This document shows, piece after piece, positions 7,586 through 61,562 of a stretch of 64,000 bases of DNA. Source of the DNA: Mustelus asterias (taxonomy: Eukaryota). Under the pieces are notes generated by a model. That model was not told the origin of the DNA. It made no database searches and saw nothing but the letters and a program-made list of their open reading frames with translations. Where the stretch lies: positions 109,306,001-109,370,000 of the forward strand of contig NC_135809.1 in NCBI RefSeq assembly GCF_964213995.1, written 5' to 3'. The stretch's first letter is position 1; each line of letters starts with the position of its first letter. The position numbers and the translations under genes are program-made.

Positions 7586-8323
7586 CCATAGAGCACCAAG
7601 TCCTGTGTCATGGATCTGCTTGGGGAAAAAGCTCTACATAAACCGTTGCATCTTTCTCTGGGCTTTCTTTGCAAAGGCGCACTCCGCAAGAAAGTAGACA
7701 ATCTCTTGGTCTTTTCAAATGGGCTTTCTCATGGTGGTTATCATTAGAATAACTTCTGCTGTTACTTTTAAACAGATACTAAGTGACTGGTCATGCGTTG
7801 TCTAGCCGAACTTAATCTAACCTGGATTTAATACTTAGATGTAACTTTAATGTTAACCATATAGCTGTGGTATTCTGTGACTTGTGTTTCAGTGTTCTCG
7901 GTTCCCCAGCCTGGGAAAACAGTTCTGTGTCTACCCTGTCAAGTCCTCTGGTTTTGAAACAGTTAGATTTTGATCTTTTAGCATTTTCTGGGAAGTTTCC
8001 CACCCAAGATGATTTTTTTGGTGCAACCAAGATTTTAAAACTAAAAGAGTTAAAAAGACAGCACCCTAACCATACAGACCAACCGTAGAAAAGAACCAGA
8101 ATCTTTCAAAAATCTCGTTTCCACTTTTTCTCCTTTAAGACAGTTTTCAAGTTCCGATGTTCAGTACTTATCCAAAGTTGAAAGGAGCAACCAGTAAAGC
8201 GTGTATTTAATTTGAATTTTATCAGTTCTCCTTTAGCTCCGGTGCAAATGCTTTGAAAAATTCAAATTTAGATTTTGAATCTGCTTTTGCTCCTCCTCTC
8301 TTAAGCCTTGCTGGACCCACTCA

Positions 8324-28800: not shown

Positions 28801-31800
28801 CCCAGACTGCCCCTATCCCCCAACCAATGCTATTAATATGATGACGGTACCACAAACATAGTATTGAGTTGGAAATGATTCTATTCATGTTGAAGCAGGA
28901 AGACTAAACTGTGAAAGTCCCTCACCTAAAAAAACTTTTTCTTTGCAAGATTATTCATTTGCCAACCTGAATGTTTCTAATTTGCCTACTCATTCACTTG
29001 TCCAGAATACTTCTCCACTGTCCTAGTCGCAGTGTATTCCATTTCTGCTATTTGCCCACCAGCATGCTCACTGCCAGCATGCTTCCTAGCTCACAAACTC
29101 AGCTATGTGCCTCACATTTTTGTCACCTGTTCACCAAACTAGGTGTTTCTCAGCATGTCTCACACCCTAGTGTTTCATGGTCCACCTGTTCACTTACCTG
29201 TCCAAAGTGCTTGCTGATCCACCTATTTGCTCTCCTCGTCAATCCTTTTATGGCTGTCCAACCCAAATAAATTCCACCTTACCCACTGAGTTCTTTGTTT
29301 ATTTCCTGAGGATGGATAAAATGAGCATTGGTCTTCTAATTACTTTTGAGAAGGTGGCGGTGAGCCATCTTCTTGAACTGTGGCAGTCCATGTGGTGTAG
29401 ATACATCAACAGCACTACTGAGGAGGGACCAAAAACAGAAAATGCTAAAACAAATCTCAGCAGGTTCAACAGCATCTGTGGAGAGAGAATAGAGCCGACC
29501 CTTCAAGTCTGGATGACCCTTCGTCAGAGCTCCGTAATCCAGTTTTTTCTTTTATCTATTGAGGAGGGAGTTCTGACACTTTGACCTGTTGTCAGTGAAG
29601 GAGCAGCAATATAGTTGCAAGTCAGGATGCTGTGTGGCTTGGAGGGAAATTTGCAGGCGAATTCCCATGCATCTGCTTGTCCTTCTAAGTGTTAGAGGTT
29701 GCGGGCTTGGAAGAAGCTGTTGAAGGAAGCTTGGTGAGATGCTGCAGCCTATCTTTTAGATGTTACACGCTGCAGTCACTGTGCAGTGTGCAACGTGTCT
29801 TCAAAAAGAGCAAGTTGGCTATACCATGCTGTCTACAAACAATGCTGCTAAGGCCTGCTGCTGTACACACAGCTCGCCAACAGCACTCATGAGCAGATAG
29901 TGGTGTTGGTGTGGGGTGCTGGCTTGTGCTACAATTAATTGGGAACAGTAATTTTGCGTGATACTCATCTCAATCAGAATGGGTGCAGGCAGGTCAAGAA
30001 TCACCATCACCACATCCAAAAATCAAGTTATCCAGATTCTAACTCAATATCTTCCAATCTCACCTTAAGCAACAACACAAGATCATCCAGTGTTTGAAAG
30101 ATTAGGAGCAATTCATACATGTTTAAACCAATATACAAAATCTTTATTACATGTTCCTTTGGTATGTAGAAATAAACAAAGTTGCTACAACAGAATAACT
30201 TCATTTGCTGATCAAATACAGAACTATGTTGATACCAGAAGAGATACAATTCACCTTTTAAAAAGAAAACATTTGTAAGTAAAACATGAATATACAGGGA
30301 AATTCTTGACAGTTAAATCTCTCAATTGTACTTAGTAAAAATCCCAAATGTTTAACATTTATTACAATAGGGCCATCTCAATTAAAATTCTTTGGATTGT
30401 GAGATCATAAATGTGCAATTTTATGATTACAAAACAAACTGAACCAAGAAATCCTGCATCAGGTTAAAAAATGAATGAAATAGTAATATGCTTTCCTATA
30501 CATAGATTTACATAGGATATGCAGCATCAAAACAGTGGTGGGCATCCTGTGGCTGGGGGGGGGGGGGGGCACATGACATCCATCTGGGTGCTATGTGTGG
30601 CCCATGAAACATTTTATTGACCACTTCCCATGCAGAGGGTTGCCACAATCCACTGATTTCCATCTGCATAGGTTTTTTTCCTGCCGGTATGACTGAAGTG
30701 ATGCGCACGTAAAGCAAGGGCAAATGAAATGTGATGCTTGTTGTTTGCACACATTGATTGTAAGACATGTGCTCCCACTATGTCAAAAATGTAAACAATT
30801 TGCTTTTTTCCATTTGAAGTTGATGATAATTCCATTAATATACACGATTAAGCATTTTCTATAACATCATTATGAAATATTGGCACGTATTAAATGTGTT
30901 TAATCTTATTAATGAGGTCATGGTTAGTGAACAAGCCTGATTTCAATCTTGCGGCCCACTGAGATGGAGGAGGTTGTGGCCCACTCACTTGCCTAGGTTG
31001 CCCATCATTACGCTCAAGTGCATAAAGTTCACAGATTTCTGAATTCACATGAGATTGTTGACTAAGAGTCTCTGGTAAATGTATGTAAATAACATAAAGA
31101 CTGTATGGCCCTTCAAGCTGGCACTGAATGAGGCAACTCCACTTTCCTGCAAGCTCCCTAAATCCTTCCACTCTCTGAGACTAAAAAATTATCTATCTAT
31201 ATCTATCACATCTGGCCTTGAGTAGATTCAATGGTGGAGCATCCACAACCCTCTGGAATTGAGAATTCCAGAGGCGCACAACCCTCCAAAATGAAAACAT
31301 TTGTCCTTACCTCAGTCTGAAATGATTGTCCTCTTTATCGTGGGACTGTGCCCCCATGTTCTAGATTCCCCATCCAAGGGGAACAATCTCTCAGAGTTTA
31401 TCTTATCAGAATCGTGTCTGTTTCAACGAGACTACATCTCATTCTTCTAGACTCCAGAGAATACTAGCCTAATTGACTCAACCGCACCTCATAAGGCCAT
31501 CTTCTCATCTCAGCAACAATTCTATTGAACGTAGGGAAAGACAGTACTAACTTGAGGGAAAGTGGAGAAAAAAAGGGAAGAAATGAGGAGTGTTTCAGTT
31601 AAAGGGAAAATTATGGTGTAACACATGGAGAGAACTTCCCTGCTCTTCTTTGAAGAGTCACAGAATCTTTTATGTCTAACCAAGAGAGCAAGTGGGGTCT
31701 CCACTTCATATGTCATACAAATGACAGCATTCTAAACATTTAAGAGGAATGAGAGCCACCTCTGGGTCAAGGCTGAAAAGTGTTTCTGAAGTATCTTTCC

Positions 31801-33730
31801 AACTAAGAAATAATGTATGCTGTGGAGTGAATTAGAAATAACTATTCCTGCACTCATTTGTTAAAAGAAAACTTACATAGTTAACAAAATGTTTTGTCAA
31901 ATTATAAAAGTTGGTAAAGATATCTTCCAAATTTGAAACCAATATTAATATTCTTCTGCTTTATAAATATACACAGAAGAAATAGCAGCCTTCAAATAAA
32001 ACAAACTGACTCCAGTTTAAAGCAGATACAACAATCTTGTTATAAAGCAGATGTATTTTGCTTACTTGTTTTAAGTGATAATGAAAGGAATAAAATATTA
32101 GGGGTGGGGAAGGAATTCTGTAATCCTACAGTGTCAGATGTACATGTTGCAATGACAGGGAGTTGGATTTTCAATTATGGCATTTGTAGAAAACCTCAGC
32201 ACCTCGGAGTCTGCTAAATTTATCAGTCTGGTTCTTCCTTTAAAAATAGATAAAATGCATCTGTTTAACAGACTTTGTACGATACACAAAGCATATTTAC
32301 TTCTCAAATTCATGGCCATGGGATGAAAACAAAACCACTTGGACTTTCATACGTGTTGCCAGTTTATAAATCAAGCAAGTTACTCAATCGCCATGAACCA
32401 AAGAAAGAAAATACAAAGAATTTTGCCCTCATGTTCCAAACAATTAAGCTGAAACAGACAACAGAAAGCTCACCAGGTAACTCTTTTATAGTCAGTGGGA
32501 AGAGGTGACCAAGGAGGTCAATGCTAACTTAGTTCACAGGAAATGGCTGCAATCCTGAAGAGCGTCCTCAATGTTCCCAAGAATTTTACCTCTCATCTCA
32601 ATGGTCCGTTCCTGCAAGCACACAGGCACTATCCTCCACTGATTTCCTTCACTTCCTACAATCACAACACCACTCCATCTTTCTCCACACATGCACCCCT
32701 CACTTACTCATGTAACACCATAACTATTCAGTCACAACAAGCACATTCTGGTTGTCACACTTTATCCTGCAGGAAAAGGTTCCACACAGGTTAGGCAGAA
32801 GATGGTGACTATAGACACTGGAGGCCACCTGCATACCTTTACCCCACACAAAGAGAACATATGGAACATTACAGGAATGGGGCCAGTTATGATCTTGAAG
32901 AGTGACAACACAGGAGATGACACTGTGTCCTCTCATTCTCACCCTATGCAGCCAGCACAATAGTGTGTAGAGATCATTTTAGCAGTTAATTCATTATCTC
33001 CTCTCTTCCCTCACTTATATCCCTTGTTCCTCTATTTTATGCAGTTATTCTGTTTTCACAAACAGTGCATTTGAAGGCCTGTCCTCAATGCTCATTCTTT
33101 CAATTTCTATATAAATAGCTAATTAGAAACATGGGGAAAATCCATTAATCATTTAATTTTTAATTGTTCTCTGCCTTTTATTTCTTTATTTTTCTTTCCC
33201 CCTATTTTATCCCCTTCTCTTACCCTTTTCCCCTCTTTTTCTCAATATTACCTCCTCCCACCCATCTTCCCCCTCCCCCCCACATCTTCATCTGTCACAG
33301 TTTGCCCTCTGATTTCAGCTTCTCTGCCATTTGGCCATTCACACTTCCTATTCCCTCTATGGACTGCCATTAGCAGCCTTTCCCCTTGTTTTTATGGCTA
33401 TGACTCATCTTTCATTCCCTCACCCTACAGTATAAATATCTCCCACTTTCTACGCCTTTTAGCCTTGACAAAGGAGCATCTGGACTCGAAACGTCAGCTC
33501 TTTTCTCTCCTTACAGATGCTGCCAGACCAGCATTTTCTCTTTTGGTTCCATTAATCATTCAGCTGTCTGTATTATTGATTATCTTAGATACACATATCT
33601 TACAAAGATAAAGGATAAATGTGTTAGTGAGTAGAAAACGTTAGACCATAAATGATGAAATTTCATTCACCAATGGAATAGGTAATGCAAGATAAAAACA
33701 ATGGGGTTGCTTCCATCTTTCACATCAAAA

Positions 33731-34071
33731 TCACAATGAGCTGCTTCCTGTTCCTGAAATACCAACTCCACTTAATTTCAGTTGGAAGTCTCGGCAAATT
33801 GGGTCCATCTCAGTGATCACTTCAATTTGGAGTTTACAATTGCCATCCTCTTGCTTTGGTACATAAGTTAGTGCAGTGGTGAAACCTACACCAGTTTTAA
33901 ACGGTGTATTGGTAATGCAGATCATATCTTCAAAAGGGTAAACCTCTCTGGACCAAGTGATGTGGGTGTCTTCTATGGTGGATCCTGTAATTGTGCAGGA
34001 AACCGTCACAGGCTGGCCAGCTTTAGGACATTCAGTCCGGCAAGTGATCTGTGATACCTCCTGGAAATTAT
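33731..34071 (-). CDS. Gene 2 exon: divergent distal Ig-like domain (F-strand Cys absent)
   Basis: Acceptor attccaacag|. ITCRTECPKAGQPVTVSCTITG..ITW..FTTALTYVPKQEDGNCKLQIEV. Ends either at the TGA at 33731 or at a phase-1 donor at 33763 (|gtattt, 309-nt exon); a candidate last acceptor at 32448 gives A*. Confidence 0.7.
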
Positions 34072-34774
34072 CTGTTGGAATAAAATTAATAACAATAAAA
34101 CTCTTAAAAATGTGACATAGATATAGATTTAATTCTATTAATACAAGGAAAATTCTAGCAGTAGAGCTCTGCACTCCTACACTAGGGGCCTTTTCATTTT
34201 AGTCTCAACTGCTTCTAATATTCTACAAGAAGTGAGGCATTTGTCACCAAGTCCCTGCATGAATCACGAGCCTTGAAATGAAATAAGCAGGACAACAGCC
34301 AGAGACAGTCTAGCCATCCTCTGTCTCAATTGAGTGTATGTGGAGTTAAAGGAATAATGGAAATGGAGCCATAAAAGAAACAAAAATATTCAAGAGTGAG
34401 ATACAAGGAGGAATTCTATTCTTCACACCGGGAACTTTGACTGCGAGATTAAAGTGCTATACACAAATACTAAAAGGTTTTATAGTTTATATACTAGTAA
34501 TTTATATACCAGTTACACAGAAAAGCCAAATTGATACAATTTATTCATTTCTGGGCAAATATTTGTGCACTATCAGAATGGGCATGTTTCCAGTTCAGAG
34601 GTATTTACTAAAGTTGAAACAATTATGAAACATATCACATCCTGGCAACTGGCAAAGGGAGAGCCACAGGAGATAAGTGGAACAGTTAGCATGACATCAA
34701 CTATTAAGCACCAAGTCACTCCATATTACAAAAAGCTTGAACACCGTAGCAGATCTGGTAACTTTAAGATCTGG

Positions 34775-34953
34775 CTGGCTGTAGGGATTCGCATTCTAAT
34801 CAGTATTCTGTAACTTGATTTCTGTGTCTCTGTGCCCTGTTTGAGAGCACATTTCCACTCCATCTGACGAAGGAGCAGCGCTCTGAAAGCTAATGGTGTT
34901 TGCTACCAAATAAACCTTTTGGACATTAACCTGGTGTTGTTAAAACTCTTACT
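34775..34953 (+). mobile_element. Penelope terminal-repeat remnant
   Basis: Matches 60405-60590. Confidence 0.72.
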
Positions 34954-37132
34954 AAGATTCAAGAAGCCAGTGCATTATTGACTGTCTGCTACCAGGCTTC
35001 ATCAACTGAAGGTCCATGGGCTGCAGGCCTTTTATGTGGTCCCCAAAGCTACTGCTCAAAAGCTGGCACACAGGCCGGTCAGTTCAAATGCAGGCAAATG
35101 AAATTCAAGATTTTGCAAAGGGCTGATCTTCCAATCACAGGCCATTCTATTCCCATATCTGTTGCTGATAAGTGATCAGAAGCAAATGAGGGAGAGAAAC
35201 AGTGCAGGAGCAGCGATCACCGGTGGTGGCGAATGTGTCGAGGGCTGCCTGCCCAGGTGAAGCAAAGCTAAGTTGGGGAATGCCAAGCTCAGGCAGGGGC
35301 CGGTGTCTGAATGATGCAAAGGTTGCCCTTGTATCCACTATTGTCTGCATTCTGATATATCAGGTTTCCTGTGCATAAGGACAACAGATCGTTTGCACTT
35401 TTTGCATGATTTCTGCAAGGAAGAAGTCTTAAAATCAGAAGATGGCAACTTTTGGTAGACCCCAAAACTGAAACATAACATTTCAATGTGGAGAGAGCCA
35501 TGTGGATTGAGGCAAGCACTTTGGGTGATACAGACAGGAAATCAGAAAAGGTATTTGCCACATAGGGTTTGTCCTGTGGAACCTTTCATTAATCTTCAGT
35601 GAAACACAGCATGAGATCCTGATTACTATTTCAATTAAAATTAACATAAGCTCCATTCCTGAATTTCTATTCTAAGCTTTATTTCTCTTCTTTTTCTAAG
35701 TGTGTCTGAATGCAGTGAGGCTGTGCTCAGTGCATCCAGTCTTGTAGAGTGAGAACTAGCACTCATTCTCTCCCCTCCCAACGACCAGGACAGAGATGTG
35801 AGCGCACACACGCCCAAAGGGTTGGTACATGAATAATGTAATACTGATGAGATGCAGTAAAACAAGTTGCTGACTGAAGGATCAAGATGCATTGCCCATT
35901 CTCAAACAGTGACATTATGATTTAAGGTTTCTGTTTTTAATTATATACAGAACCAAGAACAGTCAGAAATTGATGGATAAACTGGAGTCCACTCTGTGCA
36001 CTGTAATCCACCTTCGAACGTTTGAATAGGGGACAACCCATCGGAGGCCACGAGAATAGTCAGCAGTTCGTTCAAAGTTTCTCCAGCTGCCGCCATAGAC
36101 TGTGTGTCAGACTGAGGAGGAATGTCTCATGGCTCTTTGTTTATCTCAATGTAATCATTTTTATGTGCAAAGATAGCCCCAGTTGCCAGCATAAAGAAGG
36201 AAAGAGTGCAGGCTCTCAGCAGCCAACAGCAGGTCCACCTCTCCTGCCTTGAGGAAATGGCACAAGATCCAGTCAACTCATATCATCTTGTCAATTAGAA
36301 GGCACCTAAGAAAATCACAAGCTATGTGCACACACACTATTCACATTTTGATTAAAAATATGGTTGCACTAAAGATGTGTTGAAATTGGATTTGATTAGA
36401 TAGTTTTTCTTCATCCTATTAGTTGATGCACTCAGGGAAAAGTTTGTGCAATGACCAGATGTGGCAGTTTTATCTTAATGTGGCAGAAATATGCTCTGCA
36501 GCTAGGAAATCGCTGAGCTCTATTTTATCCGCATGCCTAGGCTGCTGCTCCAATAAATCCTCAAGTGTGGGCTACTAATGGGTAGATGTCAAGAGCTTCC
36601 AGCGCAATCTCACCAGCCTGATTTCCCTTCCCTTCCAGGGAGCATACGAATTAGAAATGTATGTCCTGTCTTGTCTGAAGGCAAATGGCAGAGAATGAAT
36701 CATTAGGAACGGCAAACAAAAATACTAAATTACTGAAGAAATAAGGATTTTGCAAAGCTTTAATCATATTTGTGTTTGGTTATTTAACAGGCCAGCCACA
36801 AAAATGCTGTGGTGACAGGAACTGGTTAAAAGTTCATTACTCTGTCTCCCTAAAGTCTTTACATCTCCTACAAGGCACAAGACAGGATAATAATGGAATA
36901 ACCTCCACTTGCCTGGATAAGTGCATCTCCAACAATATTCAATGAGTTCAACACCATCCACAACAAAACAGCCTGTTTATTTGATACCCTATTCTTAAAT
37001 ATTCACTCCCTCCACTGCCAGCGCACAGTGACAGTAATGTGTACTTCCTATAGGAGGTACTGCAGCAACTACCAAGGCTCATTCAATAATAACCCCCAAA
37101 CCTGCCTGTAGAAAAGTAACAGGTGCATGGAA

Positions 37133-37476
37133 ATCGCTTCTCGGCCTTTTGGCTAAGATCAAGTGTATGGACGGCAGCCCATGGTCGGCCGCACTTGGTC
37201 GAGGTCATTAGGTTGCGCTGGGGCTTCGTGTGTTTCATATGAAGCAATTTTTGGGGGCGGCATCTCGGCCTTTTGGCTGAGATGCAGATGAGCTCGGGTC
37301 TTGGAGGAGGAACCTCTCCCTTCTCCAATCAGCTTGGCTCACGTAGATCAGGCCCAGGACAGGGTGGTTTGGTTGGTCGCTCGCCCTGTCTTGTCAGCCT
37401 GGATCTGAAATGTCTCAACTTGTTGAGACTCTGAATTGGATTTGATTTGATTGAATTGGAAAAGTATATAAAAAAA
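37133..37476 (+). mobile_element. U2 snRNA-headed SINE-like retroposon
   Basis: Starts ATCGCTTCTCGGCCTTTTGGCTAAGATCAAGTGTA (U2 nt 1-35). A second U2-like segment lies near 37263. A-rich tail, with TSD aacaggtgcatggaa on both sides. Confidence 0.85.
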
Positions 37477-37786
37477 AACAGGTGCATGGAAATACACTAC
37501 ACAATTTCCCCTCCAAATGACTCTCCCATCCTGACCTGGAAATACATTGCCATTCGATTACTGGAATTTCTGCCCAATGGCACTGTGGGAGTACCTACCT
37601 AGCCCAAATTGCAGCTGTTAAAGAAGGTGGCTCACCACCTTCTGAAGGGCAATGAGGGATGGACTTTTGTTGACCTTGTTCAGTGACACTCACGTCTTGT
37701 GAACAAGTGAAAAACCTTCAATTTGTTAAAAGCTAAGGAGATAAATAACTGCATTTCCTGCACATTCAGGCACCAGATTTTCTCTG

Positions 37787-38050
37787 GTTAGCACTGCTGC
37801 CAGGGACCCGGGTTCGATTCCTGGCTTGGGTCACTGTCTGTATGGAGTTTGCACATTCTCCCTGTGTCTGCGTGGATTTCCTCCGGGTGCTCTGGTTTCC
37901 TCCCACGGTCCAAAGACATGCTGGTTAGGTGCATTGGCCATGCTAAATTCTCCCTCAGTGTACCCGAACAGACGCCGGAGTGTGGCATCTAGGAGATTTT
38001 CAGAGTAACTTCATTGCAGTGTTAATGTAAACCCACTTGTGACTAATAAA
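37787..38050 (+). mobile_element. HE1-like SINE, alternative tail
   Basis: HE1 head and core plus the tacccgaacag..gtgactaataaa tail. Confidence 0.78.
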
Positions 38051-39227
38051 CAAGGCTATTGTTATCAGCTCACAGAAACCTGCCACACAAACAATATAAA
38101 TCCCTGAATGAGCAAGAACACTTCAAACTAATGCCTGTCAGATGCTCTGCTATTTTTCAAACAGACCTTTGACACAGAAGCAGAACACAAAACAAAATTG
38201 TAATTCCTTGAAAATTATGTGGAATCTGTAATTGTTTTCAAGAGTTTTAAATAGCTGCATCAGTTGTAAAAGAATTCATTGAAATTTCCTTCGATAATAA
38301 GAAATGCAGGTCCATGTGACCTGGCAACCCTTGACCTGGAAGCAGTACTAAGAGGAAGGAAGTTAATAAACAAATTGTGTGGCTGACAGCTGGGTTCAAA
38401 GGAGAGCTGCAAGCAGATGAGTTGGAGGGTGAATGTGATTGGTGTATGGATGCAAACAAAGAGAAAAAAGACAGACACAGAAAGAGGAACACAAGTGATT
38501 TCTTGTGCAGAGAAGAAGCAAATCACCCCAAGGAAAAGATCAATTGTTCTTGTTTCACAGGACAAAGGAGATGGGAGCTCTTCGGAGGTACTGTGCAAAC
38601 TTTCTAAGAGTGTCCAAATCCTGGAAAGCTGTGCAAATAGCTTGGGGATGCTTAAGTACTGAATGTTTTCCCAGAAGTGGCCAAACTGCTAAGTGGTATA
38701 AGTTGGTCAGTTGAAAGGGAATTCTGGCATCTGGAAAGCTACACCATCAGGGCTGTCATGACCGGAGAGGGTTCATAGACATATGAGTTGGTGCTGATAT
38801 TCATGAAACATGAAGGCGAAAGCTGTTGTCAGATAGGACTCCTGGCTTACCCTGTATTAATAAAGGACAACATTTTGTGGAACTGTGCAGCTATGCAGTG
38901 TCACTTTTATGAGAGAGTGAAAATCAATGCTTGTCGTTGTGCAAGATCGAGGGGGGGATTATGTGGCCTCACTCGAGCGAGGCCAGAAATTCCCACTTGA
39001 GGTCAACGGAGATTTTCATTGTTGGAACCCCGCCAGCTCCAATTCCGTGGCAGGGGAGGTAGTAGAGTTCCGCCACTACTGTCTAAAGTAAAATTTACCT
39101 ATTAGTCATATCATTTACTTGTTAATTAATGTGCGATTTGTGTTGGCTCTGATTCATGATAAAGAGAAAGCTACAAAAGTATAATCATGGGTCATTTTCT
39201 CATTTGATTTTCATCCAGTAAACATGG

Positions 39228-39586
39228 TTATTTTGATTTGTGGTTTCCCCACAGGGATTGTGGTAATGGTTGCTTATCCAGTCGATCGAGCACCCAGTTA
39301 ACTTCCGATGGCTTTATTAGGCTTTCATGTTCTACTTGGCACGTGTACGTCTTCTCAACATCAGCCCTGGTAGGTAGACTCTTCACACTACTTGTCAAGC
39401 AATAGAGTCCATCACTTCCCAGAGTTGGCTCACTTTCTTCAGATTCTTCTGTCATTATTTCACCACTTTTGAGCCAAGTAACTCTGATGATCTTGGGGTA
39501 GAAAGAATGTATTCGACAGTATAAAGTCATGGGTTCTCCGGCCATTATTTTTTCTGTACATGTTATTATGTCCAGTTTTGGAGGGG
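39228..39586 (-). CDS. Gene 2 exon: post-TM Ig C1 domain D3 (expected donor at 39277 reads AT; read-through stops at 39228)
   Basis: Acceptor tttcttattcag|. LYCRIHSFYPKIIRVTW..SDGLYCLTSSV..YTCQVEHESL; paralog of gene 1 D3. The domain ends ctg g|ATAAGC. Confidence 0.85.
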
Positions 39587-39822
39587 CTGAATAAGAAACA
39601 GGAAAAACAAACTTACTGTAGGTTTTAACGGAGGCAGATTAGAGATATTGGGGTCTAGATTCTACCCTATCTGTAGCCAATGGCCACATAATTTAATCCA
39701 TTGTGTTCTGAAAATTCAGAATGGGGCTAAGTGTAAAATAAAAAGTTACACAGTAAGCTCAATTAGAGAAACATCATGCTCAGGACACTTCATTCATTAA
39801 AGATGTTGAAAATATTACATAC

Positions 39823-40203
39823 CAGTAATGTCTAGAGTTATTTCTTTCTTCTCCACACTCTTAGTGCATTCGTGTTGTACTTCACAGATATACTTTGTGC
39901 CCTGGTCTTGAAGTATATCTGGCATAATAGTTAGGATACTGGTGATGCCATATGATTTGTCTTCATATTCAACCTCACTTATTTGATGGTCACACTTCCG
40001 CATCATCCCATGGTCAGGAGCAACTATTGTTCTGTTGTTCTGATCCAAACGAACAATTTCTTTCAACTCACCATTCATCCTCATTTGTTGCCATATTATC
40101 GTTAATGGTTTTGGTTTAAATCCAATGACTGAACAAGCCAAGGAGATAAGTTCATTATGATGAGTGTGCAGTGGCACCACAATGTTTGAAACTTTTGGTG
40201 GGA
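39823..40203 (-). CDS. Gene 2 exon: post-TM Ig C1 domain D2
   Basis: Acceptor ttcccaaag|, donor |gtatgt, 381 nt. LACSVIGFKPKPLTIIW..EVEYEDKSYGITSIL..YICEVQHE; clear paralog of gene 1 D2. Confidence 0.88.
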
Positions 40204-49820: not shown

Positions 49821-50655
49821 AAGCCACAATCAGACCAGACATGATGGTACTGAATGGGCTCAAGGGGCAAGAGCAGGGAGTGGAACTATCTCCTGTAGAG
49901 ACCCAGAATGGACCCGATAAGCCAGATCTTTTCTATATTGTAACCATTTTATAATTAAGTTAGTCATTTGGCAGTACTGAACTTCCATGTTGCTGAAAAA
50001 GAAATACATTTTTACTGAAGATTTTCATCTTGCACTCATCAGGATAATTTTCAAGAATACCAAATGTAAAGTGAACCACAATGAGATGAGATGCTGATTG
50101 GTTGACAAGTGGACTCTTGACCGGTAGAGACACTTCCATGGAGAATGCATCAGTTAATGGTGACTGCCAAGCACCACTGCACTGGCACAGAAATTCATAT
50201 ACCATGATATTCATTTGTGATGGGCAGAATGTCTCTTTGACTTGATGGCAGCATCCTGTTAGTGGTGTTGCTAAACTACTATGCGTAACATGAAGGAATA
50301 TTAAAGCCAAACTGTGCTGGTTAATGACAGCGCTTTACATTTGACAATATGAAAATTCATTACTGTCAGAACACTGGGGTGTGATTTGCAGCCAGATTGC
50401 CCATCAGAGCTAAATGTTAACTCCAGGTTACTTTTTCTAACTGTGCTGGACAACGTGCTGGGTACACAAACACAAGGATTATTACGGGAAAAACATGCAA
50501 TAAGCAGCCAAAGAATGACGAGAACAAGGTCCACTCAAATACATAGTCACTGAACAATAAAAAGGTTTCACCAGTATATACATTACCTTGTCGAAATTTG
50601 TGCCAACAGCAAATTGCAGTGAGAAACAGGGTACATGTGTGCAGTGTACCAATTA

Positions 50656-51231
50656 TTATTTTTTAATCCAATCAAGTCCAATTCAGAGTCTCAACAAGTG
50701 AGACATTCCTGATCCAAGCTGACAAGGCAGGGCTCTCACCTCCTGTCTTGGGCTTGATCTACATGATCCAAGCTGATTGGGGTAGGCATTGCACCTCCTC
50801 CAAGGCTCCAGGGTCCCGGGTTCGATTCCCGGCTCGGGTCACTGTCTGTGTGGAGTTTGCACATTCTCCTCGTGTCTGCGTGGGTTTCCTCCGGGTGCTC
50901 CAGTTTCCTCCCACTGTCCAAAGATGTGCGGGTTAGGTTGATTGGCCAGGTTAAAAATTGCCCCTTAGAGTCCTGAGATGCTTAGGTTAGAGGGATTAGT
51001 GGGTAAATATGTGGGGGTAGGGCCTGGGTGGGATTGTGGTCGGTGCAGACTCGATGGGCCGAATGGCCTCCTTCTGCACTGTAGGGTTTCTGTGATTCTG
51101 TGAAGGCTTGATCTCATTTGCATCTTAGCCAAAAGGCCGAGATGCCGCTTTTAAAAATTGCTTCAAACGACTTCAACCAAGTACAGCATGTCGATACTAC
51201 ACTTGATCTTAGCCAAAAGGCCAAGAAGCCA
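50656..51231 (-). mobile_element. U2 snRNA-headed SINE-like retroposon (older, divergent copy with a nested HE1 SINE)
   Basis: Head matches U2 through ..AAGTGTAGTATC, and the body is related but divergent. Left TSD gcagtgtaccaatta at 50641-50655. Confidence 0.8.
50808..51102 (+). mobile_element. HE1-like V-SINE (5'-truncated) nested in the U2-headed element
   Basis: Near-identical to 18478-18773; aaggct duplicated at 50802-50807 and 51103-51108. Confidence 0.85.
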
Positions 51232-51246
51232 GCAGTGTATCAATTA

Positions 51247-51549
51247 TTTTTTTTTAATACTTTTCCAATTCAATCAAATCAAATCCAATTCAGAGTCTCA
51301 ACAAGTTGAGACATTTCCGATCCAGGCTGACAAGACAGGGCGGGCGACTAAACCACCCTGTCCTGGGCCCGATCTACATGAGCCAAGCTGATTGGTTCCT
51401 CCTCCAAGACTTGGGCTCATTTGCATCTTAGCTTTTAAAAATTGCTTCATATGAAACATATGAAGCCTCAGCGTAACCTAATGACCTCAACCAAGTGCAG
51501 CATCCTCTCCATGCTACACTTGATCTTAGCCAAAAGGCCGAGAAGCGAT
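51247..51549 (-). mobile_element. U2 snRNA-headed SINE-like retroposon (younger copy in TM exon A)
   Basis: U2 5' end at 51549, body matches 37133-37476, poly(A) at 51247. TSD gcagtgtatcaatta at 51232-51246 and 51550-51564. Confidence 0.85.
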
Positions 51550-52149
51550 GCAGTGTATCAATTATACTTATAACAACTGCTGAATATTCCTCAGGCTCTG
51601 AAAGTTGAAAAAGAAATACAGAAGCATTTAGACTAAAATTGCCACAATAAACTGTCACTTGCACAAAACGTGGTCTGGTTTGCTCCATTTCTTTTAAATC
51701 ATAATTTAAGATACTCGAGTCTTTAAGGAATCTGAAATGACAGACCTGTGCTGTTAACAAACTCTCTAAATAGCCCAGAAATGCGGTGAACCACACTCCT
51801 TTAGCACCAATGAAAATAAGCTGCAATTACCCATGACCCAGAGAGGTATTTACTGTAATTTCATAGGTCAGTTCATTTGCATGCATATTGGAGTGGTGAA
51901 AATAAGAATAATGGAAATTAGAGTAAAGATTTTTAAAAGACAGTTTTAACCAAAGACTGCAGCAGGCAAATAAGGAACTATGGTCAACTTCGGCCTGAAC
52001 TTGCACAGTGACAGAGATCCTTTCTTCCTGATCTGAAAATATTGCCCCCAAATGTGGCATTTTCATGCAGGGTAGGGTAGGGTGGGTGGGGCGGAGGTGC
52101 AGACAGGTCCCATATTGAACATCTAGGGTTAACTGAAGCAGCTCGCATG

Positions 52150-53145
52150 ATTTTGGCGCATTGGGATGGGAGAATCGTGCGACGGACTGCCTTTTTGCAG
52201 GATTCGCGAATGCATGCGTGTCTCCCACAGCCGGAGAACAGGCGCAGTCGAGAGCGTGCTGGAAACCGGCGGGAAGAGAGGTAAGTAATTTCAATCTATT
52301 TTTAATGTATTTTAAATGTGATTATCGGGCCCGACACAGAATTCTCCGGGATAGCATCTCCCACCCCACCAGGGCTTAGAGTAGTTCCCCACGTGCGGGG
52401 AACTAGCGGGAGACCCCGGAAGAGTGAAGGGGGGGGGGCAATTGGGGGGCCCCCCCGGGGGTCGGGCAGTGGGGGGATGGTGCCCTCTGGGCATGGACAC
52501 CCTGGCTGTGCCAGCCTGTGCCCTCTGGCACTGTCCAGGAGGCATCATGGCACTGCCCAGTGGGGCTTAGGGGTGTGACCGAGAGGGCAAGTGGCAGCCC
52601 CAACAGGGCGGGGCTTGGGGGGAGGGGCCTGGGGAGGGGTGGGGCCAAGGGACGGAGCCTATAATGGACAGGACCTAGGGGCAATCAGTGGAGGTGAGGG
52701 GTCCAGCTACCACTCTGCATTGGGATTGGTCGGGACTGGAGGGAGGCCAGTGATCGGGGTGGGGGGAGTTTGTCTCCCGGGGAGTGGTCTGCTGTGGGAA
52801 TCGCTACTGCTTGGTTGGGGGTGGGGTGGGGTGCTGGAGATCGGGACGTTCCAGGAAGTGGGATGGTTGTGTGGGCCGCAGTACAAGGGTCCCGGGCTGG
52901 CCAGCGATTGAGCTGGCCAGCAAACTGGGAGACTGACAGATTGGGGCCACTGCGCATGATCAGAGGGCTGGAACTGTCTGACTCTGATGTGAATAGGCCT
53001 CGCCCCACATGCTTTTCATGAGATTCACGATTGTGGCCTCTGTGCAATGTAGAGTTTGGGAGATTAGAGTCTGAAGTTGAACTGAAAAAACAGTCGTGAT
53101 TTGCACCAGTTTTCACGCCAATTCTTCACTTTTGGGAGAATCGCG
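52150..53145. repeat. GC-rich interspersed repeat (homologous in reverse to ~22190-22510; partial copy at 61610-61920)
   Basis: Direct sequence similarity between the loci; ggagaatcgc/ggagaattgc-type termini. Confidence 0.55.
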
Positions 53146-53621
53146 ACCACAATGGTTACTGCTTAGACTCTGACCCATGCAAAGCTTTCCTGCACCCGTT
53201 AGTTCCCATTGACTTCAGGGCCCTAACTGGGCAGACAAGGGTCCCACAATAGAAATCTCCATTGACCTCGGGCAGGATCTTAGTCTTGTCCAAGAGGCCG
53301 TAAAATCCCGTCCCAGGATTCCCAGAGCTTCTTGGCGATGAACTTTGGGCAAATGCTGTCTGGATGTCAAGGATGGTCACACTCACTTTCCCTCAACTTC
53401 AATTCTGCTATTCATGCTTGGACCGAGGCTGTTGAAATATCTCCTCAGAGGCCGGTGTCTCTTCACCAGATTCCCCTTTACTTACAAACTCTATTTCATT
53501 CATAGAGTGCCTCTGGCACACAATCAGAATCCGGAGTGCCAGAACACCTGACACCCCCGGTTTTATACACACATGAGACTCTCTGATTGGGCAGACAATT
53601 CTGACCTCAATCAGGGAACTC

Positions 53622-56600
53622 TTTTTTTTGCTCCCCAACCAAATAAACAAACTCAAATTAACTTCGGGACAAATTAAAAGGGGCAGCTCTCCAAAAGGAG
53701 GGGGGAACAGCCCAAACAAAAAACAAAGTCGAAAGGATACTTAAAACATTAAATCATAATATGATTTTCAGTGTTTATAATACACCCCAGCCCCTGCGGT
53801 GCCCAGCGGGTATGGAAGACATCATCTGTGCCCATGGACACCACATGCTCCCTCTCCAGGGACACCTGGCTGTGAATATAGCCGCAGCAGAGGGGCAGAC
53901 AGTCAGGATGGACGACCCTGTCGATCGCCCCTGGAACTCTTGATGGCTCGCCTCGCATCGCCAGGCCCAGGAGCAGGTTCACAATGAGGTCGCCATCCCA
54001 ACCCGCCCCCCCCTCCGCACCAGGTGCCTGTAGATCAGGAGCGTGGGACTGAAGTGCAAACAAAACATCAGTAAAAGGTTTTTCAGGTAAGCAAAAAGGG
54101 AATGCAACCTAAGACACAAAATGTAGACATGGTCCACGGACTCCAAGACCACAGAAGGGGCAAGCTTGGGAGCCCGTGAACCGAAAGAACCTATGGTTGT
54201 ACGGGACTGCTGCATGCAGCACCCTCCACCCCAGGTCCCCAAGATAATTGGGGGAGATCCCTCCGTATTTGGACCTCAACTGTGGACCTCCGGCAGCAAC
54301 AAGGCCCGCCAAGGTGTATCTGGGTGACAGGCGAGGATGCGGTAGTGGAAGACGTGCCACAACAGTGGAGGAAACGCCTCCGTGCAGTGGAAAAGGACAC
54401 AGAGGACATTCGCATGAGGCGGCTCATGCTGAGGGGCACCTGACGGGGTGAGGGGGGGGGGGGGGGGGGAGGAGGAGGGAGGGTCTAGGCTTTGGGCCGA
54501 TGTGAAATTCCATCCGAGCAGGGGATTGCTCGGCGGGATCCCACTGCATGCCTGTGCCGCCTCGAGACCGCGTGTGCACTCGGGGCCGAGCACGACCATC
54601 CTAAGGTCTTGGATGGCTTTGGCCACGCGCCGGATGGCCATCCCCGCGCGCGCTCAGCCAGCACATGGGGGCTCATCCAACCCACTCCTCCACCATCCAG
54701 CACGTCCCCGATCCTGATCACCCCGGCGTCCATGGCCCTCCTCTCCGCCAGCCACCTGAAGTTGTACGGCTGGATTCCTGAGCAACGGCTGTCGCACGAG
54801 AGCTGCTACTCCTGACAGCGGAGAGCTGCGTTGCGAGGCGACCGTGTTTGAGACTGAGAAGGTCCTGGTAAAAGACGGGCAATGCCTGCAAGGAGGGTGG
54901 AACACACCCCAGATTTATATGCAGGAGCTGCATGTCATAATTCAGGCCGTGTAACTGGCGGAAGAAAGACATCACCAGGGCACAGCATTCTGGAGGCGAA
55001 AGGTCACTATCTGTGCGGAGGCACACCAGACCTTGACCTCCCTCCCCGAGCGGGAGACGCAGAAACCCAGTGCAGTCGGTTGTCCCAGAAGAGCTGCACG
55101 AGGGTTTTCCGGATATTGGTGACAAAGCCAGGGGGAGGGGTCAAAGTGACCAGCCTGTACAACAACATGCAGGTGAGCAGCTGGTTTATGACGAGAACTC
55201 GCACCCTGTAGGACAGCACTTGGAGCAGTCCTGTCCAACGACTCAGGCGAGCGGAGACTTTGGCCTCCTACTCCTGCCAGTTCGCCGGCCAGGATTCCTC
55301 AGCTGGACAGAGATGGAACCCCAAGTAGAGGAGGTTCGTCCTGCTCCAGGTAAAAGGCCTGAGCTCCTCCAGAAGAGGGTCCATTTCCCACGGACCGACC
55401 AGGAGTCCAGAGCACTTGGCCCAGTTAATCCCGGCGGAGGAAGCGGTGGAGTACGCCGCCTGGCATTCTCGTATCCTCCGCAGGTCAGTCGGGTCCATGA
55501 ACATGAGGAGCACGTCATCGGTGTAAGCGGACAGGACCACCCGGATGCCCAGGCTGCGCAGAGCCAAACCTGACTACCTCCTCCAAGAGGTACAGGAATA
55601 GCTCCACGCAAATCGAATACAGCTGGCCGGACAAAGGGCAGCCCTGCCGTACTCCTCTCCCAAATCGAAAGGGCGCTGTCAGGGACCCATTAACCTTAAT
55701 TAGACACTCTGCGGCAGAATACAGTAATCGGATCCCGGCGGCAAAATGTGTCCCAAACACCAATGCCTGCAGAGTTCCAAGTAGGTACTCGTGCTCCATC
55801 CTGTTGAACGCCTTCTCCTCATCGAGTGATAAGAAGGCGCTCGACAGACCAGCCCTCTGGGAATGGTGGATAAGTTCCCGGACGAGATGTAAATTGTCGT
55901 GTATCAACCTGCCCGGGACCGTGTAAGACTGGTCAGCGTGGTCATGTGGTCCAGCATGGAGCCAAGGTGTGAAGCCATTGCCGTGGCGAAGATTTTGTAG
56001 TCTGTGCTGAGGAGGGAGACCGGGCGCCAATTCTTGAGATGGCGGAGATCCCCCTTTGGCAACAAGGCAATAATGGCCTTGCGCCATGAAAGGGGCATCT
56101 CCCCAGTGGCTATGCTCTCCCCCAGCACCACCGCGTAGTCGTTCCCCAGGAAGTCCCAGAGCGCCCTGAAGAGCTCCACGGTCAGCCCGCCTTGCCCCAT
56201 TGGAGGCCGTCGAGGGCACCGGTCAGCTCAGCCAGGCATGTTGGGGCTTCAAGCATGCCGACGTCCTCCGGGCTGACCTGCAGCAGGTCCTCCCACAAAA
56301 CTCTGCAGGCATCCTCGCTGGACGGATCCGGAGAGAAGTGGGTAGTATAATAATCATGGGCAATAGCCCGGATGCCCTCCGGATCCGAGACGGGGGAACC
56401 GTCGTCGTCCCGCAGCGCGCTCTTCTCCCTGTACTCCAGCCGCAGGGCCGGGTCCGCGTCGGGCTGACTGAGGCGTGCCTCCAGGTCAAACCTCTTTCTC
56501 TAACTCCTCGAGCCTGGCTTTCCGCTTCTTTGTCGACCCCCTCGTGTACTCCTGACAGAAGGTACGGATGTGAGTCTTGCCCACATCCCACAATAGCCTC

Positions 56601-59600
56601 CAGGAGGGATAGCCTCCCCGCTTCCTTCTCCAGCTGGCCCAGAATCGACGAAACAAATCCAGGAAGCGCTCCGTCCTCCAGCAGCGTGTTGTTGAAGTGC
56701 CAGTACGCGGACGCCCCCGGACGCGAGACGGAACAAATTCCGCCCTCACCAGGTGGTGGTCCATGCACGGCACCTGCCGCATGGAGGCTGACGGGACGCT
56801 GGACACGTGCGCACTCAATGTAAAGGCGGTCGAGTCTGGACGCTCCGCCTCCAGGCTTCACGCAAGTGAAAATTCTGGAGCCAGGATGGAGATGTCTCCA
56901 GACGTCCACCAAGTCGTGGATCCCGAGCAGGTCCCGCAACTTTACCACCGCCAGGGTGCGCAGCCAGGAGCCGGTGCAGACCCGTGCCTCGAGGGTACAG
57001 TTGAAATACCCCCCCACCCCCGAGGATGATGCATTCGCCCCCATTGATGGTGTCGAGACAAGCGGATGCTTTCTTGTAGAAAGTCATTTGCTGCGGTCGG
57101 GGCATTGACGTTCAGCAAGTGAGTAACCACGCCCCCCTCGCGGACCATCAAGTGCAGCAAGCAGCCTGGCACAGGGTCCTTAACCCCCAAGATCTTTGGC
57201 TGAAAATGCGGGGCCAACAAGATAGCCACCCCACTAGAAGCGAGCGTGAAGTGGCTCATGTAGACCCCCCCCCCCCCCCCCCTCGCCACTCCAGGAGCCA
57301 TCGGGCGTCATCTCCTGGAATGCAGGAAACGCACCGCATACTTCCCGTCCCGGAGGACCAAGAAGTTCTGGAACCTGTGGAGTGGCTCACTGCTGCTGTT
57401 GATGTTGAGGCTGACCGTCATGTCAGTAGCTTAGTGCCACCGTCACCACTTTAAGTGTGGGGGAGCGCTGGCGCAAGACGCGCCAGTCCACTTCCCCCAT
57501 GAGCCCAGAGGACCTTCTGTTCCCAACGCCACTTTTCCAGCCAGGCCTGACGCGGCCTGTGTGGACCGGACGAGCAGCGCCAGGTCCGACCAATGGTCAA
57601 GGGCTAGTTGGACGCTGTTGGGGTGACCAGAGTGGCCTTTGATAAAGGCCCCAAGTTCCCCAGAGGGGATGAGGGCGACTCAGTTGGGGGCACGAGGCAG
57701 TCCCCCGCCTCGCTCCAGGCAGACTCCGAAATTGTCCCCATGCCCACTACCGAGCAACTTGCCTCTTCACGGCAGTCAGACTAAGAGTCCCCCGCCACAG
57801 GGCGTATGGCGGGCGGCATAGAGCCGCCAACTAGTCTGGACTCTCCCACCCCCAGGATCGGCGGAGCTGGGGTCCTGTCCCGCTCCTCCCTAGTTTCTGG
57901 GTCAGAGGGTGGCAACGGCTCAGTCCCCCGCCCTGCCCCAGACAGCTGGGCACCCCACAGGTCCAGAGAATCCTCCAGTCTGAGTTGGGGGTGCGGAGAA
58001 CCGCGGCAGCACATGTTTATTTTTTCCCTTTTTCTTTCCCTTGCCCCCGTACTGGGCGCGGGGCAGGGGATGGTATGAATTGGGAGAGGAGCGTGGTGCC
58101 ACAACCTCCAAGCAAGGGGAGGGGGTGTGGGGAGTCCCACAGGTGTCAAGTCCCCCCCTCCCCTAAGGTGTAGCGCCTCTTCTTGAGGGCCAGCCCCTGG
58201 CAGGCGATGCCCCTCGCGCTCGGTCCCTCTCCTTCCTGCCCTGCCCCTTCGGCTTTCCCTTCCCCGGGAGGTGTCTCTGTTGCCAGGTCGAGGTCACGTG
58301 TCCCCCCCCCCCCATTGGCCCGGTAGATGGTGTTGATGGGGGGGCCGGAGGTAGATTTTCTCCCTGAGCCGGCTGCTGGGGTGACTGGGGTAGTGGGGGT
58401 CGGGGTAGGTACTCGTGCTCCACCCTGTCGAACGCCGTCTCCTGAAGGCGCTCGACAGACCAGCCCTCTGGGAATGATGGATTAGGTCCTGGACGAGATG
58501 TAAGTTGTCGTGCATCGACCTGCCCGGGACCGTGTAGGACTCTTAAATTGTCCCCGTGTCCACCACCGAGCAGCCTACCTCCTGAGGGCAGTCATCCTGC
58601 GACTCCGAGTCTCCTGCCGCAGGGGGTACAGCAGGTGACATGGAGCCGCCAACTAGTCCAAACTGCCCACCCCCAGGATCGGCGGAGGAGGGGTTCCTCC
58701 CGGGCACCTGCCTGGTTTCTGGGCCCGAGGGTGGCACCAGCTCAGTCCCCCGCTCTGCCTCAGATGCCTAGGCATCCCACAGGTCTAGAGAATCCTCCGG
58801 TCCGATGTGGGGGGCGCCCAGCATCAAAGGTCTGGACAGAGAGGGGGGCCCTCCTCTCCACTACCACCCAAGGATCCAAATGACGGGGTGTTTCCGCAGT
58901 CCTCCAGCAGGCTGAAAAGGAACTCCTCCGGGGTGCTAAATTGCACCGGGTGGAACAGATCGACGGGGGCCCCGCGCTCACCCGGCCCCGGGGGAGTTCC
59001 ACTTGGAGGACCGCGGCAGCACGTTTTTCTTCTGTCTTTTTCTTCGCGCTGTTGCCTCCGATTTGGGGGCAAGGCACGAAGATGGGTGGGGGCAGGGCAG
59101 GGGATGGCACAAATTGGGAGGGGGTGTGGGCGCCACCACCTCCGCAGCTAGGGGAGGGGGTGTGGGGAGCCCCACAGGACCCAGATTCCCCCACCCCTGA
59201 GGTGTAGCGCCTCTTCTTGAGAGGCAACCCCCTGGCAGGGAATGCCCCTCGCACTCTGCCCCTCTCCTTCCTGTCCCACCCCTTGGGCTTCTCTTTTTCC
59301 ACCCCGGGAGGTGTTATGTCTGCCGGCTCGGGGTCACGTAGCCCCCCACGCCCGGACCTGGGCACCCGCAACACCGGGCCCTGCACATGGCGCTGAGGTG
59401 CCCACGGGCCAGGTAGATGGTGTTGGAGGGGGGGTCGGAGGTGGACTTTTCCTCCAAGCTGGAGGTGTCTGTTGCGATCCTCATCCGATGTGTATGAGGA
59501 GGATCGCAACAGACAGCTCCAGACGCTGAAAGATGCCCTCATAAGAACAGTATATGGGGCTCGACTCATCGATCGACAGTTCCGACGCGCCACAGTGAAA

Positions 59601-61147
59601 AACCGCACCGACCTCCTCAGAAGACAAACACGGGACACAGTGGACAGAGTACCCTTCGTCGTCCAGTACTTCCCCAGAGCGGAGAAGCTACGACATCTTC
59701 TCCGGAGCCTTCAACATGTCATTTGATGAAGACGAACATCTCGCCAAGGCCATCCCCACACCCCCACTTCTTGCCTTCAAACAACCGCACAACCTCAAAC
59801 AGACCATTGTCCGCAGCAAACTACCCAGCCTTCAGGAGAACAGTGACCACAACACCACACAACCCTGCCACAGCAACCACTGCAAGACGTGTCGGATCAT
59901 CGACATGGATGCCATCATCTCACGTGAGAACACCATCCACCAGGTACACGGTACATACTCTTGCAACTCGGCCAACGTTGTCTACCTGATACACTGCAGG
60001 AAAGGATGTCCCGAGGCATGGTACATTGGGGAGACCATGCAGACGCTATGACAACGGATGAATGAACACCGTTTGACAATCACCAGGCAAGACTGTTCTC
60101 TTCCTGTTGGGGAGCACTTCAGCGGTCACGGGCATTTGGCCTCTGATATTCGGGTAAGCATTCTCCAAGGCGGCCTTCACGACACACAACAACGCAGGGT
60201 TGCTGAGCAGAAACTGATAGCAAAGTTCCGCACACATGAGGATGGCCTCAACCGGGATATTGGGTTCATGTCACACTATCTGTAACCCCCACAACTTGCC
60301 TGGACTTGCAAAATCTCACTGGCTGTCCTGTCTGGAGACAATACACCTCTTTAACCTGTGCTAATGCTCTCTCCACTCGCATTGTCTGTACCTTTAAGAT
60401 TTGATTAGCTGTAAAGACTCGCATTCCAATCATTATTCAGTAAATTGAGTTTGTCTGTATATGCCCTGTTTGCTGTTTATGAGCAGGTCTCCCACTTGCC
60501 TGCCGAAGGAGCAGCTCTCCGAAAGCTGGTGGCATTTGCTACCAATTTAACCTGTTGGACTTTAACCTGGTGTTGTTAGACTCCTTCCTGTTGTTGGGGG
60601 ACAGAGGAAAGGTCGGGGTCCAGGTGCTCTCTTCCCCTGGTGTCAGAGAGGGGGACGGAGGAGCAGGAGGGAGGACAAGGGACAGGGCATTGAGGTGGGC
60701 TGGTGCCCTGTCCGGGGGGGTGGGGGGACTTTAATCTTTAATCTGGGCCCAACAAAAAGTCCAGGTATATTTTCACCTCCCACTCCGGTAGATGGAAATT
60801 ATTTCTTTTTCACCCCCCCTCCGCCTCCTTTTTCAGTCACAGACCTTGGTGGGTTGGGGCAGCAGCCCCTTTTTTCCCTTCCTCTCCTCGATGGTATCTG
60901 TCCACCCTCCTGCAGCTGGGAGCTGGACCCTGAGCTTCCAGGCCCAAGACCTCCTGTCTTCTGGGCCTTTCTCTTTCCCTCTCCTCTCCTCCTCTCTCTC
61001 CCAAGGAGCGAGCACTCCCCAGTGGCTGAAGGTTGGGGGCGATAGTTTTTCCTCCAAAACTGCCAGGGAGGCAGAAGTCCCTTCACAAAAATCCCTTTCT
61101 TTCCAAACTCTAACTGCAGGACACAGAGTGCTCGCAGTTAGCAGTCT
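53622..61147 (-). mobile_element. Tx1-clade (L1-group) non-LTR retrotransposon, decayed and rearranged
   Basis: EN motifs (SSGVAILL, RLDRLY, WHFNNTLLED), RT motifs (WRPVSLLSTDYKI, GVRQGCPLSG, AYTDDV), C-terminal CPFCG..ESVDH..C, and poly(A) at 53622-53629. The GC-rich 5' part (57450-61147) has internal duplications, and the 5' boundary is uncertain. Confidence 0.82.
59472..60590 (+). mobile_element. Penelope-like element 3' part (GIY-YIG endonuclease plus terminal repeat) nested in Tx1
   Basis: NVVYLIHC..C..WYIGET, RMNEH, VGEHF, EQKLI, GLNRD motifs, followed by the ..aacctgttggactttaacctggtgttg terminus. Confidence 0.88.
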
Positions 61148-61220: not shown

Positions 61221-61562
61221 CTCCTTTACGTCTGCGCCAAATGAAAGATGCGAGTGCGTATGTCAGCAGTATAACCATTAAAATTCCTGCTGCNNNNNNN
61301 NNNNNNNNNNNNNNNNNNNNNNNNNNNNNNNNNNNNNNNNNNNNNNNNNNNNNNNNNNNNNNNNNNNNNNNNNNNNNNNNNNNNNNNNNNNNNNNNNNNN
61401 NNNNNNNNNNNNNNNNNNNNNNNNNNNNNNNNNNNNNNNNNNNNNNNNNNNNNNNNNNNNNNNNNNNNNNNNNNNNNNNNNNNNNNNNNNNNNNNNNNNN
61501 NNNNNNNNNNNNNNNNNNNNNNNNNNNNNNNNNNNNNNNNNNNNNNNNNNNNNNNCCAGATT
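61221..61562 (-). CDS. Gene 2 transmembrane exon, copy B (spans the assembly gap)
   Basis: Minus-strand acceptor ctttttcaactttcag| at 61562, donor |gtaatg at 61221. Visible part reads AAGILMVILLTYALASFIWRRRKG; N gap at 61294-61555. Confidence 0.7.
61294..61555. other. Assembly gap (262 N)
   Basis: Run of N. Confidence 1.

Follow-up and report, generated by a model that had tools for sequence, protein, structure and literature searches.

The closest described counterparts of the element treated here are the snRNA-headed SINEs SINEU-1, -2 and -3 of crocodilians (PMC4494074, Kojima 2015); in the accessible part of this defining paper their transcription is left open, an oligo-T argument is made against Pol III, SINEU-3 is described as a modified U2, the partner LINE Tx1-Mar clusters with Keno, and no SINEU is reported from outside crocodilians. 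Keno (Tx1, APE endonuclease) and Utopia (restriction-like endonuclease) are autonomous and use the same U2 site, nt 39 marking the 3' flank of Utopia and the flank of Keno being identical, according to the accessible part of PMC4640811, in which neither 'non-autonomous' nor 'shark' occurs. R2 SIDE and R2/R1 SIDE of Drosophila are internally deleted LINEs at rDNA sites, freed by a ribozyme; they, too, are non-autonomous inside a multicopy RNA gene, co-transcribed, and moved by a site-specific LINE (PMC3414825, as far as accessible). A U2-headed SINE outside crocodilians, or a non-autonomous Keno partner, was not found in the literature searched, with subscription journals lying outside it, and Repbase or Dfam entries may hold the present family unnamed. 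The accessible parts of PMC5381603 and PMC5786205 yield no further lineage, that of PMC8869645 adds nothing, and the main text of PMC11979771 contains no SINE, snRNA or Tx1.

The window, a stretch of 64,000 nucleotides of Mustelus asterias DNA, holds three copies of a family that is real, young, high-copy and U2-headed. With SINEU, as described in the accessible text, it has in common the U2 head, A tail, TSDs, a length below 500 bp, repeated 5' snRNA additions, tandems sandwiched by TSDs, internal oligo-T and a Tx1 partner with the same head; mobilisation by a Tx1-type LINE is likewise suggested here by shared targets, namely a common U2 site and stacking. Thus the features of the class (snRNA head, short A-tailed, TSD-flanked high-copy unit, targets shared with Tx1) are found, and it is the described structures that set the families apart. 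SINEU prefers Mariner-N4_AMi and has no reported U2-gene source in the text at hand, whereas here U2-gene sources are seen, a U1 part is absent, antisense arms are predicted to mask U2, and the flanks of 97 sampled copies are diverse by eye. With SINEU compared by description, this is probably a second origin of the snRNA-headed SINE class. In mechanism the element would by analogy stand nearest to the R2 SIDEs, from which it differs in being built from a host RNA gene, in keeping the host 5' end and in its genome-wide distribution.

Window copies and the extent of the family

Copy 1 (37133-37476, plus strand) begins with a head identical to nt 1-35 of the genome's U2 genes, and its 17-bp TSD sets the outer limits at 37118 and 37493. 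Copies 2 and 3 lie head-to-tail on the minus strand, with U2 nt 1-36 matched in the former and nt 4-40 (one mismatch) in the latter; one 16-bp target is present three times around them, the third repeat with one mismatch, and this is the pattern of two successive insertions at one nick. All three copies end in an A-rich tail and are matched by the Rfam U2 model (E 1e-7 to 2e-5), the gathering score being reached by one only. Rfam matches of one young copy to SNORD94, mir-26 and ycf2 lay far under the gathering score and were discarded.

The initial annotation had described three related copies, and their places, A tails and TSDs stand; the length given for copy 3 (575 bp) is inflated because an unrelated repeat of 296 bp, which we take to be HE1-like, was inserted in it, and copy 2 is deleted internally, lacking 19 bp, i.e. 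most of the internal second U2 segment, and a further 12 bp. The body, which had been read as non-U2, is largely derived from U2, as comparison with U2 and with an older monomer family indicates. The features are compiled in Table 1.

Table 1. Features of the three U2-headed copies, in window coordinates.
Feature	Position	Strand	Basis
5' TSD of copy 1, last two bases common with U2 nt 1-2	37118..37134	+	target-site comparison
U2 head, nt 1-35	37133..37167	+	identical to the genome's U2 genes
Antisense arm, imperfect match without gaps to the reverse complement of U2 nt 11-39, predicted to pair with head	37186..37214	+	alignment, fold prediction
Short hairpin, then T5-A4 run (A4 is G4 in copy 1); probably relic tail of a left monomer	37223..37259	+	origin inferred
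Second U2 stem-loop I (nt 4-27), perfect closed hairpin, no branch-point sequence after it	37260..37285	+	fold
Hairpin without match to U2 or LINE above shuffles	37288..37341	+	shuffle-controlled alignment, fold
Part derived from older monomer: second antisense arm and diverged U2 nt 40 to about 105	37346..37450	+	alignment via monomer family
3' end and A tail	37451..37478	+	sequence
3' TSD of copy 1	37477..37493	+	target-site comparison
Target site 5' of copy 2	51550..51565	-	target-site comparison
Copy 2, younger tandem member, 19-bp and 12-bp internal deletions	51248..51549	-	alignment
Target site between copies 2 and 3	51232..51247	-	target-site comparison
Copy 3, older short subfamily, interrupted	50657..51231	-	alignment
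Unrelated 296-bp repeat in copy 3, opposite orientation, B-box-like motif near its start	50807..51102	+	sequence
Target site on the 3' side of copy 3, with one mismatch	50641..50656	-	target-site comparison

Elsewhere in the window, the region 52000-60000 is GC-rich (54-62%) and holds an RT-bearing frame of another retroelement (55518-56222, minus strand), and an N run extends from 61294 to 61555.

In the 3.68 Gb of genome searched, a 22-base tail word gave 5,028 exact matches and a reversed control pattern none. Of 46 full-length copies at loci chosen independently of this word, 31 contain it exactly, and division of 5,028 by this recovery gives an estimated copy number of ~7,500. A DNA search returned 2,305 candidates on many contigs, the 40 that were scored showing 93-95% identity over the full length. 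Clustering of 159 full-length copies, with 11 singletons excluded, gives six subfamilies that lie 2.6-4.9% from their consensus; in the youngest variant, that of window copy 1, many copies differ by only 0-5 bases. The genome-wide count and the six clusters therefore answer the call for copy number and subfamilies, and the prospect of only a few copies, i.e. one-off chimeras, fails against 5,028 exact matches: the element is a unit, a short, A-tailed and TSD-flanked retroposon that is non-coding and present in many copies. Contigs of three runs with three organism codes cover 28, 28 and 27 of 28 bins of the body; the element is therefore not confined to this assembly. Among the first 100 tail matches listed, 97 copies were fetched (position-sampled); 80 start within U2 nt 1-37, 27 of these at nt 1-2, and the remaining 17 are 5'-truncated, while TSDs of at least 10 bases accompany 46 of the 97 as compared with 26 of 477 mismatched pairings. 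It is suggested that this element may underlie thousands of the 'U2' entries produced by automatic annotation of such genomes.

U2 genes, the resident LINE and dispersed targets

The U2 genes form arrays with a unit of 1,833 bp on C24 and a compact unit of 448 bp on C21. A SINE tail joined exactly to U2 nt 39 occurs at six junctions genome-wide (control 0), two in arrays and four in dispersed pieces. In the C21 array (G000:C21:28.045-28.082 Mb), the junction with U2 lies at nt 39 for five of five LINE 3' ends and for one SINE, and the array's own upstream spacer precedes the head of this SINE. Array copies of the SINE lie at G000:C21:28,064,209-28,064,531 and at C24:43.06 Mb. Insertions in U2 end in one of two ways: cleanly, so that the body follows U2 1-37 directly, or with a duplication that runs from nt 39 to about nt 52. 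In the true arrays only three SINE copies were seen, one of them decayed (L066); a U2-embedded copy of the youngest variant was not found, and only caps and spacer remnants hint at one (L026, L042). Four intact units are left in the C21 array (28045000-28082000), where they are outnumbered by six LINE copies and one SINE, and which also contains inverted segments and a low-complexity repeat on its flanks.

The putative partner LINE is 5.3 kb long, starts with U2 nt 1-35 and is dispersed as well (221 exact tail matches). Its ORF1 contains RNA-binding domains of the ZCCHC3 type, and its ORF2 an APE-type endonuclease, an RT and a zf-RVT domain, with L1 ORF2p as the best PDB match (E 4e-82). On the basis of insertion site and endonuclease we call this LINE Keno-type, the partner assignment resting on this one LINE among the Tx1 families of the genome; in contrast to Keno and Utopia as described, it is also widely dispersed and carries the U2 head along. 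None of the first 20 LINE tails listed genome-wide stands at U2 nt 39, and its specificity is therefore relaxed; a site-specific LINE would here have loosened its target and yet kept its promoter host.

The proposal made at the outset, of a non-autonomous element in a U2 gene with a 5' end from the U2 transcript and a Tx1-type enzyme, is supported by the six nt-39 junctions and by an APE- and RT-bearing LINE at the same site, and the Keno/Utopia position near U2 nt 37-38 given with it is matched by SINE and LINE flanks that resume at nt 39. The search for a source copy was successful in part: U2 3' sequence follows downstream at nt 39, while upstream the PSE-like match is marginal (14 of 21 positions in the upstream regions of two arrays; 49 of 1000 shuffles as good) and no clear octamer was seen by eye. 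The suggested comparison of the SINE 3' tail with that of the resident LINE proved marginal, 21 and 25 of 500 shuffles reaching the score. Two body segments matched the whole LINE at shuffle level (99 and 50 of 100), and the SINE as an internally deleted LINE, i.e. a SIDE, was rejected on this ground.

At 34 dispersed target sites no U2-like consensus was detected. Nine of the first 100 tail matches listed have a same-strand neighbour 287-346 bp away; such tandem rates were obtained from samples. Within a stack a single target recurs, and the front copy is mostly the younger; in L141, for example, a LINE is followed by SINEs of falling identity. Of 20 LINE 3' ends, four lie directly before a SINE head, for which about 1 in 30,000 to 40,000 would be expected by estimate, a further one precedes a SINE without head and another adjoins an inverted head; in 4 of the 97 sampled copies the SINE tail leads into an older head at its nt 28-31. 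From the stacking and the LINE ends at SINE heads it follows that SINE and LINE share targets. Such reuse could mean that the head attracts the enzyme, or that the sites are hot in themselves. The idea that headed copies are stronger insertion magnets than truncated ones was dropped, since new insertions at 11 of 80 headed and 0 of 17 truncated copies do not differ significantly once the false flag L076 is removed (with it, 12/79 versus 0/18, p 0.07). Template-jump dimers were likewise set aside as the origin of most tandems, because in them copies of unequal age lie at one repeated target; such a dimer may yet account for junctions without TSD, e.g. L007.

Some further observations concern the insertion sites. 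At the edge of the C24 array (L061 1480-1972, G000) a second, more distant Tx1 3' end, 77% identical to the main LINE, meets U2 nt 39, so that there is more than one U2-targeting lineage. A short repeat, presumably Penelope-like, whose core resembles a hammerhead occurs in copies in the U2 array spacer (L061-L066), and several SINE and LINE copies are inserted at the AATAAA of this repeat (L014-L019, L029, L030, L073, L147, L170). One SINE-LINE junction recurs on several unplaced contigs (L127-L132 on C204, C250, C278, C305, C502 and C922), probably within a larger amplified unit. In the window itself, two fragments (6619-6736 and 7586-7690, minus strand) show 72-78% identity to the 3' part of the Keno-type LINE.

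Anatomy, predicted fold and ancestry

The RNA is predicted to fold far better than shuffled sequences (z -8.3 for L023 and -6.9 for copy 1), and 21 of 159 paired columns vary as against 61 of 125 unpaired ones. Between arm and head, pair-keeping transitions occupy 9 of 18 G-U-allowing sites and pair-breaking ones 0 of 11 in four of the six consensuses (p 0.005), the other two giving p 0.02 and 0.053; the six consensuses are related and the arm tests non-independent. Two-sided covariation was found in only 1 of 95 predicted pairs, and nine pairs are broken in one subfamily consensus. By fold prediction, the antisense arm would mask the U2 head including the U6-pairing and branch-point sequences, with selection indicated, and the 5' UTR of the LINE is predicted to have an arm of its own against the head, in a different register. 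At L098 and L240 an inverted U2 head stands at a junction; events of this kind could have founded the antisense arm.

Direct alignment of the 3' third of the SINE with U2 40-110 is weak (20 and 55 of 500 shuffles), and the homology therefore rests on an older monomer family with L035 as a member, through which this third is strongly linked to U2 (0 of 500 shuffles on both sides). This older family, about 225 nt in length with at least 2,161 candidates, lies 5-11% from its consensus at 19 of 20 loci, one mis-oriented locus having been dropped from the 20 (L216-L235, e.g. G000:C1:107737806-107737991). The monomer consists of U2 1-31, an inserted arm and diverged U2 40-170, in which the Sm site is kept. 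In the composite the Sm site is lost; reading its internal T5 run as one was considered and set aside, because A4 follows it in the family and monomer copies end in similar T/A runs. From these alignments we infer that a modified U2 gene gave rise to the composite through additions at the 5' end, for which stacking of the kind seen at present is the simplest route. Alu, which possesses an internal Pol III promoter, took a like course from modified small-RNA gene to monomer SINE to composite with A-rich linker; the family here appears to lack such a promoter. The analogy with Alu is also drawn in the accessible part of PMC4494074.

Transcription, life cycle and competing readings

Several loci bear on how the element is transcribed. 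In L106, U2, spacer and three SINEs make up a piece of about 1.66 kb between TSDs, and L101 is similar, with a LINE tail at its end; as judged from their structure, both are read as retrocopies of U2-spacer-SINE read-through RNA. Array spacer is carried over ahead of the head in L102 and L104, and U2 39-57 behind the tail in L151; the junction of array spacer and head has only 13 exact matches genome-wide. From the duplication of nt 39 to about 52 at U2 insertions it was predicted that progeny should be capped by U2 1 to about 52, and caps are seen: 25 of the first 30 dispersed 'long U2' matches are U2 ending at nt 46-56 joined to a SINE or LINE element, a range whose lower bound is imposed by the search pattern, with the class of L046 doubtful and two loci duplicates. 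Together, the read-through pieces and the caps appear to trace dispersed copies to U2-embedded sources, and transcription from the U2 promoter would agree with them. Pol III is disfavoured because runs of T4, T5 and T4 lie inside the element, in which no tRNA gene was detected.

It is accordingly considered likely that the family is a U2-gene-dwelling non-autonomous retroposon whose head comes from the U2 transcript and which is moved by a Tx1-type LINE. In the proposed cycle, the Keno-type LINE and the SINE both insert such that U2 resumes at nt 39, the external Pol II promoter of the U2 gene would transcribe U2 nt 1-38 plus the element, and each generation would take a fresh U2 head from the host gene, a promoter of its own being unneeded. 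The RNA would fold back with the antisense arm covering the head; the LINE proteins, to judge by the shared sites, would prime within the A tract and place the copy mostly at dispersed, loosely chosen sites with TSDs of 10-20 bp, in many cases where a U2-headed copy already sits and rarely back into a U2 gene, where the copy would become a new source. Dispersed copies, being without promoter, are probably dead. Historically, a U2 gene would have given rise to the modified-U2 monomer, and this to the composite when a U2-headed element was stacked before another.

It is unlikely that the head is instead acquired anew with every insertion, through a template switch from body RNA to free U2, while unrelated promoters in the flanks transcribe the body and the copies embedded in U2 are bystanders. 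The U1-like 5' extensions of SINEU-2 have been read as template switching (PMC4494074) and R2 is reported to jump to U12 and tRNA (PMC3414825), both in the accessible parts of these papers, and in L036 and L037 (G000:C1:112.24 Mb) a SINE 5' half, U2 1-94 and a LINE fragment occur twice in tandem, likely as a result of real switching; yet the head/body junction is fixed within each subfamily, an arm complementary to the head implies that the head belongs to the folded RNA, the array spacer travels with copies, and the caps, rather than spreading over the whole 188-nt U2 RNA, end within the range of TSD lengths. A self-sufficient element, whose dispersed copies would act as sources by means of a promoter inside it (either an A/B box-like Pol III pair formed by head and arm or an octamer), is quite improbable. 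It would account for several subfamilies having been active in overlapping periods and for the few U2-embedded copies visible today, against which the turnover of U2 arrays has to be set, as it would purge old sources. The octamer ATGCAAAT, which we take to be a motif of snRNA distal enhancers, is exact in all six consensuses and in window copies 2 and 3, and may be a by-product of a locked stem; the B-box-like bases are explained as antisense arm, the three oligo-T runs argue against such a promoter, and the 97 sampled copies include no large group with a common non-U2 5' flank. A host variant-snRNA gene with a function of its own as founder, and the copies as its retropseudogenes, is very improbable indeed: the strong fold, the lower variation of paired columns and the Sm site retained by the old monomer would suit it, but all promoter-bearing loci seen are insertions whose A tail is followed by U2 from nt 39 onward, the subfamilies replace one another quickly, and the composite no longer has the Sm site.

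For the U2-gene-dwelling retroposon a wider reading is put forward with somewhat better than even confidence. A promoter-less lineage would re-enter U2 genes time and again, each source being a disabled U2 gene and the head being renewed in every cycle; SINE and LINE would have gained their arms separately, hiding the head from the splicing machinery, and dispersed U2 heads would serve as decoy targets. The same logic could fit SINEU, whose 5' extensions in crocodilians would, if this is true, be target-site duplications of vanished snRNA-gene sources. For the transcription of snRNA-headed SINEs, left open in the accessible part of PMC4494074, a candidate answer is thus available as named loci, namely U2 genes in which the Keno site is occupied by a SINE, the retroposed read-through pieces forming a fossil record. 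The family is young enough, with 0-5 substitutions in many copies, for direct testing, which makes the question of SINEU transcription testable.

A last feature concerns the substitutions of young copies. Window copy 1 differs from its subfamily by 14 substitutions, 12 of which are A>G, and six or more A>G changes were found in 4 of 40 young copies (window copy 1, L098, L030 and L139), at sites that overlap without being the same; some two thirds of the 40 had been selected for their resemblance to copy 1, so that site sharing is overestimated, whereas the other three hyper-edited copies are neighbours not so chosen. Taken together, the 40 copies show 72 A>G against 8 T>C. ADAR disfavours G 5' of the edited A, and G is indeed rarer 5' of the A>G sites (5/41 versus 20/65), so that the pattern looks like ADAR editing of double-stranded RNA before reverse transcription.
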